Positions 14,393 to 15,469 of a stretch of DNA of 64,000 nt are shown one piece after another; position 1 is the stretch's first letter, and every line of letters starts with the position of its first letter. Location of the stretch: NCBI GenBank assembly GCA_964353115.1, contig CAYGUI010000001.1, positions 13,417 to 77,416 on the forward strand. The letters run 5' to 3'. The position numbers and the translations under genes were made by a program. Source of the DNA: an uncultured Gammaproteobacteria bacterium (lineage in GTDB: Bacteria; Pseudomonadota; Gammaproteobacteria; JAGOUU01). The notes beneath the pieces are model-generated. The model ran no database searches and had not been told where the DNA came from. It saw only the letters and a list, made by a program, of their open reading frames with translations.

Positions 14393-15469
14393 TTAGGCAT
14401 ACTGAGTCAATAAAGTAAATAAATTTTTCACCCAAATATCACTATCATTTAGGCAAGGGGAAACAATTAAATTTTCCCCACCCATATTTTTCCATGATTT
14501 TTTTAGAGATATATTAATTTCTTCTAATGTTTCTAGACAATCAGCAACAAAAGAAGGGCAAACAATTCCAATATTTTTACAATTTTTTTCTCGTAATTTA
14601 GCTAATACAGTTTCCAAGTCTGGAGTAAGCCATGGTAGTTTTCCGAGTCTTGATTGAAACCCAAGGCTATATTGATCTTCTTGTAAATTTAATTTCTCAG
14701 CTAATAATTGAGTTGTTTCATAGCATTGCATTTCATAATTATTGCTACCAGTATTTTGCCGCACCGGTATTCCATGATAGCTAAATACAATGTGATCTAA
14801 ATTTTGAGTTAATAAATTATTTTTGATAATTTCAGCCTTAGCATCCAAATAATTAATTTTTTTATAAAAATTATTAATTATTGTTAATTCAGGAGTATGC
14901 TCATGCTTACTTAAAACTTCTAGACATTTGCTTATAACTGTACCTGTGCTAGATGTCGCGTATTGTGGATAAAGCGGTAAGATTATTAGTTTTTGATAAT
15001 TTTTTTTAATTATTTCTTCAATATTATTTTCTATGCTTAATTCTTTGTTATTTTTGCTATAGCGCATTGCCAAATAAACATCGAAAAACTCACTACTCTC
15101 ATTGGCTTCGCTTGGCTCTGTGCTCCCGCGAAGTCCGTCATTCCCGCGAAGTCCGTCATTCCCGCGAAGTCCGTCATTCCCGCGAAGGCGGGAATCTAGA
15201 AATTCTTTCTGCAACTTTTCTCTTAGATTTTCACTATAAAATAATAATGGCGATTTATTATTTTTAAGCCATATTTTTTTATAATTTTTACTAGATTTAA
15301 ACGCTCTAAAAGGAGCAATTAACAAATTCACCAAAACAAATCTTGGTAATAACGGTAAGTCTATAACTTTAGGATCAGATAAAAATTCACGAAGATATCT
15401 TCTTACGTCGCTAACATTAGGAGATGATGGGGTGCCAAGATTGATCAGTAAAACAGCGCTTTTATTCAT
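14393..15469 (-). CDS. hemH: Ferrochelatase carrying an in-frame repeat-element insertion
   Basis: N-terminal LINLGTPSSPNVSDVRRYLREFLSD and LPLYPQYATSSTG match HemH. A 26-aa insert (RGNDGL)x3-RG sits in a loop and is encoded by the palindromic repeat. Confidence 0.85.
   Translation of the reverse strand: MNKSAVLLINLGTPSSPNVSDVRRYLREFLSDPKVIDLPLLPRFVLVNLLIAPFRAFKSSKNYKKIWLKNNKSPLLFYSENLREKLQKEFLDSRLRGNDGLRGNDGLRGNDGLRGSTEPSEANESSEFFDVYLAMRYSKNNKELSIENNIEEIIKKNYQKLIILPLYPQYATSSTGTVISKCLEVLSKHEHTPELTIINNFYKKINYLDAKAEIIKNNLLTQNLDHIVFSYHGIPVRQNTGSNNYEMQCYETTQLLAEKLNLQEDQYSLGFQSRLGKLPWLTPDLETVLAKLREKNCKNIGIVCPSFVADCLETLEEINISLKKSWKNMGGENLIVSPCLNDSDIWVKNLFTLLTQYA
15121..15197. repeat. Palindromic repeat element (18-bp tandem x3 plus CATTCCCGCGAAGGCGGGAATC) inside hemH
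   Basis: cccgcgaagtccgtcatt repeated three times, then the cattcccgcgaaggcgggaatctagaaa palindrome. The host ORF stays in frame. Confidence 0.85.

Follow-up and report, generated by a model that had tools for sequence, protein, structure and literature searches.

An in-frame repeat cluster of the CGTC-1 type in the ferrochelatase gene of an AT-rich gammaproteobacterium

The 64-kb stretch of DNA analysed here (the window) carries a ferrochelatase gene, hemH, whose reading frame runs without a break through a cluster of short palindromic repeats. The gene and the parts of the cluster are laid out as follows.

14393 to 15469, minus strand: hemH (ferrochelatase), an intact ORF of 358 aa (ORF list, Pfam, AF2 and Foldseek)
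15088 to 15192, minus strand: inserted block of 105 nt, or 35 codons, giving residues 93-127, SRLRGNDGLRGNDGLRGNDGLRGSTEPSEANESSE (DNA alignment with the orthologous contig L041)
15088 to 15126, minus strand: distal tail of the insert, ggagcacagagccaagcgaagccaatgagagtagtgagt, encoding GSTEPSEANESSE; GC-rich and single copy (searches of the window)
15124 to 15187, plus strand: tandem array of the hairpin 5' half plus a 5-nt spacer, unit CGTCATTCCCGCGAAGTC (TRF and half-site search)
15172 to 15199, plus strand: complete CGTC-1 REP/NTS hairpin, CGTCATTCCCGCGAAGGCGGGAATCTAG, with an 8-bp stem and a 4-nt loop (NTS consensus match and RNA fold)

The hemH ORF comprises 1077 nt (358 codons), with neither a stop nor a frameshift. 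The Pfam family PF00762 (Ferrochelatase) matches its product over the full length (E 1.2e-90, 304 bits); the match is split in two at the insert, and its second stretch begins at residue 124. The AF2 model, built from 117 sequences, has a mean pLDDT of 92.2 and a pTM of 0.89. In Foldseek, the top matches of this model are ferrochelatases only, at E values of 1e-22 to 1e-17, and superposition on the human, yeast and Bacillus subtilis enzymes gives TM scores of 0.74-0.85 (0.85 being the best, on the target). The neighbours of hemH have their own peculiarities. Directly downstream lies a 450-aa ORF (window 13006-14358) that has no Pfam match and whose exact product is recorded for this contig alone. 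The upstream helix-turn-helix (HTH) gene contains, near its 5' end, a 27-nt (9-codon) in-frame tandem duplication at 16010-16062 (SDLRKLKLG / SNLRKLLKK), and its protein is 195 aa long here vs 101 aa on L041.

On the plus strand of the window, the insert consists of a GC-rich tail of 36-39 nt, then 3.6 copies of CGTCATTCCCGCG followed by AAGTC, then the complete hairpin. In each array unit CGTCATTCCCGCG is the 5' half of the hairpin and AAGTC is the spacer; TRF reports a period of 18, 3.6 copies and 100% matches (score 128). Read on the coding strand, the insert opens with the hairpin, ATTCCCGC-cttc-GCGGGAAT, and the repeat region reads ...LQKEFLDSRLRGNDGLRGNDGLRGNDGLRGSTEPSEANESSEFFDVYLAMRY..., which is translated as ...KEFLDSRLRGNDGLRGNDGLRGNDGLRGSTEPSEANESSEFFDVYLAMRY; the final 7 nt of the hairpin (15193-15199) serve as the host codons Leu-Asp-(Ser). 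The array itself encodes (LRGNDG)x3 on the minus strand. The composition of the block sets it apart from its surroundings. Its GC content is 61%, vs 28.5% in the rest of hemH, its codons are minor ones (GGG and GAC account for 7% and 13% of synonymous use), and its peptide is strongly hydrophilic, with a GRAVY of -1.52 and 5 basic and 7 acidic residues. RNA folding of the region yields the expected 8-bp hairpin and no stability beyond it (z = -0.21 vs shuffles), and Rfam at gathering thresholds has no match in the window. The tail is found only once in the 64-kb window (up to 3 mismatches; blastn-short), and metagenome_contigs contain no exact match to its 22-nt core; a donor locus may have supplied it as flanking DNA. 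Among 224 word-sharing candidates retrieved with a 41-aa insert peptide, the one scored match was a 72-aa spurious ORF containing (RGNDVGV)x3.

The hairpin is not confined to hemH. Its core, CGCGGGAATGACG, is matched 13 times in the window with at most two mismatches, vs 0.26 matches expected, and seven full hairpins are present where none is expected. The copies outside hemH lie at five further loci.

11293 to 11351, no single strand: two family members in inverted orientation with their CGTC tags outside (head-head dimer), 3 nt apart, intergenic
33589 to 33616, plus strand: family member, intergenic, between sucD-like and def-like genes
38388 to 38478, minus strand: family member directly after rplS (L19), with a 21-nt half-site array of 3.6 copies
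42690 to 42717, minus strand: family member forming the last 11 codons of ribF (LDSRLRGNDGN*), in the same frame as in hemH
55979 to 56006, minus strand: family member starting 4 nt past the stop codon of a histidine-kinase gene

All seven copies begin with the CGTC tag, and six have the stem ATTCCCGC-N4-GCGGGAAT without mismatch, the seventh being ATCCCCGC/GCGGGGAT. The 3' tail is CCA in four copies and CTA in three. Against the 28-nt NTS consensus, CGTCATTCCCGCGMAVGCGGGAATCYRG, the hemH hairpin is identical at 28 of 28 positions; the copies at 15172, 42690 and 55979 have no mismatch, three more have one, and one has three. The head-head dimer is flanked by half-site arrays with units of 20 nt (11248-11305) and 19 nt (11339-11375). 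It lies between a CN-hydrolase gene and a peptidyl-arginine deiminase-type gene, and one of its members is the copy with the compensated stem ATCCCCGC/GCGGGGAT. The ribF copy (42690-42725 with the stop codon) falls at the very end of its gene, just beyond the Pfam Flavokinase domain, whose match stops at residue 298 of 310. A 305-aa RibF product with the repeat-derived tail is present in the public protein collection.

Sequence and architecture place these repeats in a known family. Di Nocera, De Gregorio and Rocco (2013, BMC Genomics 14:522; PMC3733652) defined the CGTC-1 REP by an 8-bp stem beginning with AT, a 4-nt loop and a 3-nt CCA-like tail, and equated it with dRS3 in Neisseria and RPE-6 in Rickettsia conorii; it is also found in Coxiella burnetii. 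The NTS, in turn, includes the classical dRS3 repeat (Nat Commun 2025;16:2388, PMC11893778). On sequence grounds, then, the hemH element is a member of the CGTC-1 REP/dRS3/NTS/RPE-6 family.

The window holds other repeats as well. Two IS3-family copies, at 57177-58360 and 60711-61896, have identical 276-aa rve/DDE transposase ORFs, share at least 300 nt of 100% identical DNA and end in terminal inverted repeats of 31-33 nt; they flank a prolyl-oligopeptidase S9 gene (58552-60624) in what looks like a composite transposon. Just outside the end of the second copy, at 61921-62014, a 47-nt unit occurs twice (95-96% identical), each time with its own GGGGAGAT/ATCTCCCC palindrome. The short space separating the plus-strand ORFs 1103-1996 and 2063-3583 contains 8.9 copies of the 7-nt sequence TAATTTT (1987-2049; 98% matches).

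Comparison with other ferrochelatases indicates that the block in hemH is a derived feature. Among 5.8 billion proteins, the closest homologue of HemH is a 314-aa protein, P0001, with 53% identity by BLASTP over the full query including the insert and 60% over aligned columns. P0001 is encoded on L041, a 1.9-kb contig that carries the same upstream HTH gene with the HTH-hemH order kept, and we therefore regard it as the orthologue. Pairwise alignment of the two genes at the DNA level shows a single clean gap of 105 columns with collinear flanks, the junction reading ...caagatt|ttttcgat... in L041 and ...ctagatt[105 nt]ttttcgat... in the window. The NTS consensus ends in ...AATCTAG, which is CTAGATT on the hemH coding strand, at the position where L041 has CAAGATT. 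Between the end of the preceding helix and the MRY motif, 105 of 117 ferrochelatases have 23 aa, and HemH has 58. RGND occurs in none of 116 homologues, and neither it nor AGMT nor a related repeat peptide appears in any other sequence of the 117-ferrochelatase alignment. Judged by these alignments, the segment is a derived insertion. One close orthologue, at 60% identity, is available for dating it. Searches with HemH for closer relatives returned nothing above 38% identity in genome_contigs, and a scan of metagenome_contigs had the same outcome. Exact-product look-ups of HemH, three neighbouring ORFs and IleS (P0122) gave no record. The sequences nearest to HemH come from MAGs, HemH is about 41% identical to its Legionella counterpart, and IleS of the window is at most 57% identical to anything else.

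Two other readings of the site were considered and set aside. Seven homologues carry 7 to 15 additional, Asn-rich residues at the same position, so that this loop evidently accepts changes in length of its own accord. An ancestral loop or an ordinary low-complexity expansion was rejected all the same as the source of the block, since other lineages expand here with N/Q-rich sequence of the AT type and none with the repeat. A target-site duplication (EF...EF, gaattt/gagttt) was likewise rejected: the ambiguity of the boundary is only 1 nt (ends agatt / gagt), and there is therefore no such duplication.

The predicted structure shows where the additional residues go. In the AF2 model, residues 100-127 form coil between a helix (74-99) and a strand (128-135), and the pLDDT falls to 56 for residues 101-110 and 59 for 111-120 before rising to 73 for 121-130. 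The insert is thus modelled as a low-confidence loop that leaves the fold undisturbed. As a general rule, the strands of parallel alpha/beta domains start on the side opposite the active site, and the insert, which immediately precedes a strand, would accordingly face away from it. Only one of the three sense frames across the hemH hairpin is free of stops, and it is the frame used; the block is translated because it lies in this sole stop-free sense frame. A preliminary description of the DNA had reported a repeat inserted in frame in ferrochelatase, without frameshift or stop, whose 18-bp units add (RGNDGL)x3 to a surface loop, and had proposed alignment with orthologues free of it. The intact 358-aa ORF with its clean 105-nt gap against L041, the TRF result with its translation, and the modelled coil bear this account out, and the alignment reveals the expected empty site in L041 and no repeat in 116 of 116 homologues. 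Its measurements were less exact. It put the insert at 26-30 residues between E. coli HemH positions ~95 and ~100; the block is 35 residues long (93-127; 105 nt, 15088-15192), and in E. coli K-12 HemH numbering the insertion point falls between L91 and P92-M94.

Taken together, these data make it very probable that a CGTC-1-type cluster was inserted into hemH after the split from the closest sampled relative, and that it persists as a translated, tolerated passenger in a loop. The inserted cluster comprises one full 28-nt hairpin, three extra tandem 5' halves and about 39 nt of co-inserted GC-rich DNA, and the 105-nt block adds 35 very hydrophilic residues to the link that joins a helix to the second beta-strand of domain 1. 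The peptide itself is most likely a neutral or slightly costly passenger.

Tolerance could have another cause, namely that hemH is becoming a pseudogene in an organism that can now do without the enzyme, for instance by scavenging haem from a host. With 33% GC across the window, the organism is indeed AT-rich; it is related to Legionella/Coxiella-like bacteria, and the MRYGxP motif beside the insert is altered, with S138 and N140 replacing the G and P of most homologues (G138S, P140N). A stretch of 4 additional amino acids accompanies these changes, and together they could reflect local relaxation just after the insert. Moreover, the HemH product was not found in a collection of 15 billion proteins, even with 10 alternative in-frame starts, although 10 of 13 other ORF products of the window were, including IleS, L19, RibF, SucD and Def. 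This absence may reflect a pseudogene flag in the source annotation. Against decay stands the gene itself. The 1077-nt ORF is open, and the 117-sequence alignment shows that all 33 of its invariant columns are kept in HemH, among them the catalytic His H232 (in S-Y-H-G) and D310, C311, L312, E313, T314 and E317 of the conserved acidic D-C-L-E-T-x-x-E helix. Of 77 columns with conservation of at least 90%, HemH deviates at 4, the same count as in the insert-free orthologue and inside the family range, which extends to 9; P140N is one of the four, and G138S shows only in an 18-sequence alignment. The AF2 model, too, is confident. Conservation and model together suggest that the enzyme most likely still works, and we consider decay of the gene improbable.

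Co-option of the ferrochelatase loop for a function, for example as a surface for new interactions or as a regulatory or disordered tether, is less probable again. The peptide is charged and exposed, and the LDSRLRGNDG frame is used in both coding occurrences, hemH and the ribF C terminus. Reuse of this frame is to be expected, however, since it is the only stop-free sense frame in the hemH copy. The insert lacks codon adaptation to its host, and its array units are 100% identical, which argues for a recent origin at the DNA level. The same peptide is also found in unrelated proteins of other species, and such insertions have been viewed as neutral loop decorations (PMC3733652). Slightly less credible still is an assembly or sequencing artefact, in which the insert or its copy number would stem from a misassembled repeat. 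The source is a draft contig of 85,216 bp, and perfect tandem repeats are prone to copy-number error; but the hemH flanks are contiguous, in frame and collinear with the orthologue, the array spans just 64 nt, well inside a read, and the 39-nt tail is unique, non-repeat sequence.

The insertion of a CGTC-1-type cluster thus remains the preferred reading, and its array is one of several. Arrays of 5' halves flank four of the seven hairpins in the window, with periods of 18, 19, 20 and 21 nt. Unrelated contigs of 43-61% GC contain about 30 more, of 2-7 copies and with periods of 16-25 nt, most of which end in an intact hairpin (loci L042-L047, L090-L106). The plan recurs: the hairpin 5' half with a locus-specific spacer of 4-12 nt is repeated n times and followed by one full hairpin, with the 5' halves on the CGTC side. 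This architecture is described in neither PMC3733652 nor PMC11893778. The 18-nt repeats in hemH would most likely have arisen by local replication slippage.

These arrays bear on two further proposals of the preliminary description, that the 18-bp unit, a multiple of 3, is what permits the insertion, and that frame-preserving copies are selected for. As to the unit, 18 is divisible by 3, so changes in the copy number of the hemH array by slippage keep the frame; its period is nevertheless not itself evidence of selection, because it falls within the 16-25 nt range of arrays elsewhere, among which 18 is not special. As to selection, repeats are indeed scarce in genes. Four of the six repeat loci are intergenic even though ORFs make up 93% of the window (P=3e-4), and three copies overlap or adjoin, within a few nt, an upstream stop codon. 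Exclusion from genes is what purifying selection predicts, and ordinary purifying selection on the host gene is therefore enough; selection for frame at the level of the element is not needed.

A dedicated transposase is apparently absent for CGTC-1/NTS repeats. SsnA, a small GIY-YIG nuclease, binds the NTS as single-stranded DNA and cuts a few nt upstream; comparable pairs of motif and nuclease occur widely, with enrichment in symbionts such as Rickettsia and Wolbachia (PMC11893778). In this scheme, a genome with the motif would be expected to encode a cd10448 GIY-YIG Ssn nuclease, its gene typically flanked by the motif. At the DNA level, the hemH hairpin would resemble the single-stranded sites bound and nicked by Ssn GIY-YIG nucleases, and an Ssn enzyme may have taken part here. 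No Ssn-like GIY-YIG gene was detected in the 64-kb window by a motif regex or by tblastn with an approximate YhbQ-like query. The half-site arrays adjoin the reported Ssn cut zone. Speculatively, these arrays are the likeliest place for something new. They could be the footprint of CGTC-1/NTS propagation, for instance if Ssn nicked the DNA close to the CGTC tag, on its upstream side, and re-priming or slippage then took place at the hairpin, with hemH containing an active, copy-number-variable array inside an expressed enzyme and its junction C[T/A]AGATT (6-7 nt, NTS-like in the host) being a preferred target. We regard this scenario as rather unlikely as it stands.

The hemH insert is a clean and datable example: the syntenic orthologue shows the site unoccupied, the ends of the block are exactly defined, and the structure is modelled with confidence. 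Here a conserved metabolic enzyme of a gammaproteobacterial lineage, outside Rickettsia, has taken a REP-type hairpin into its coding sequence, and the case joins three literatures on one element, those of dRS3/NTS with Ssn, of the CGTC-1 REP and of RPE-6. There is also a practical lesson for annotation: where an AT-rich genome encodes GC-rich RGNDG, AGMT or PRRRES peptides, these derive from repeats. What is known of how such insertions arise or are tolerated is left unchanged by this case.

Among known systems, the intragenic MITE and ERIC elements with ORFs (Delihas 2007, as cited in PMC10969869) are likewise small non-autonomous repeats that form in-frame fusions with host ORFs; in contrast to the hemH insert, which has no target-site duplication, they have both terminal inverted repeats and target-site duplications. 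As to the NTS, three window copies, that in hemH included, are identical to the 28-nt Neisseria meningitidis consensus. The differences are that an ssn gene is not seen in the 64-kb window and that intragenic or tandem copies go unmentioned in PMC11893778.

The likeness to CGTC-1 as described in PMC3733652 extends from structure to habit. The CGTC tag, the AT-starting 8-bp stem, the 4-nt loop and the CCA-like tail are common to both sets of repeats. Both are interspersed, lie mostly just 3' of ORFs, include head-head dimers and occasionally occur in frame within genes. Indeed, GTAG and CGTC REPs were found inside coding regions in that study, and in-gene insertions were interpreted there as neutral decorations in loops. 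Its intragenic CGTC-1 peptides include DSRLRGND in the 5-aminolevulinate synthase of R. conorii and GSRLRGND in FeoB of C. burnetii (supplementary table of PMC3733652), as well as HSRFRGND in biotin-protein ligase and LDSRFRGND in several other proteins; the DSRLRGND of HemH is thus on the published list. Ferrochelatase is absent from that list, and the host here is an AT-rich gammaproteobacterium. The arrangement also differs: the hemH insert is a hairpin with a head-to-tail array of 5' halves and a unique tail, whereas PMC3733652 reports singletons, inverted dimers and clusters, with head-tail dimers negligible.

The Rickettsia palindromic elements (RPE; Ogata et al. 2000, Science 290:347) offer the parallel that the preliminary description had drawn. 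As they are summarised in PMC10969869, they share with the hemH insert a translated palindromic repeat within an otherwise conserved enzyme, compatible with its fold. The classic RPE-1 is about 150 bp long and unrelated in sequence, whereas hemH carries a 28-nt REP with local amplification, and RPEs number dozens per Rickettsia genome, compared with one internal and one C-terminal case per 64 kb here. The parallel proves to be stronger than was claimed. CGTC-1 is RPE-6, and because published CGTC-1 copies, RPE-6 included, encode the very peptide found in HemH (PMC3733652), it amounts to literal family membership. Rickettsia and Coxiella have already provided documented cases of both the phenomenon and the peptide in this family, and hemH is one more example.
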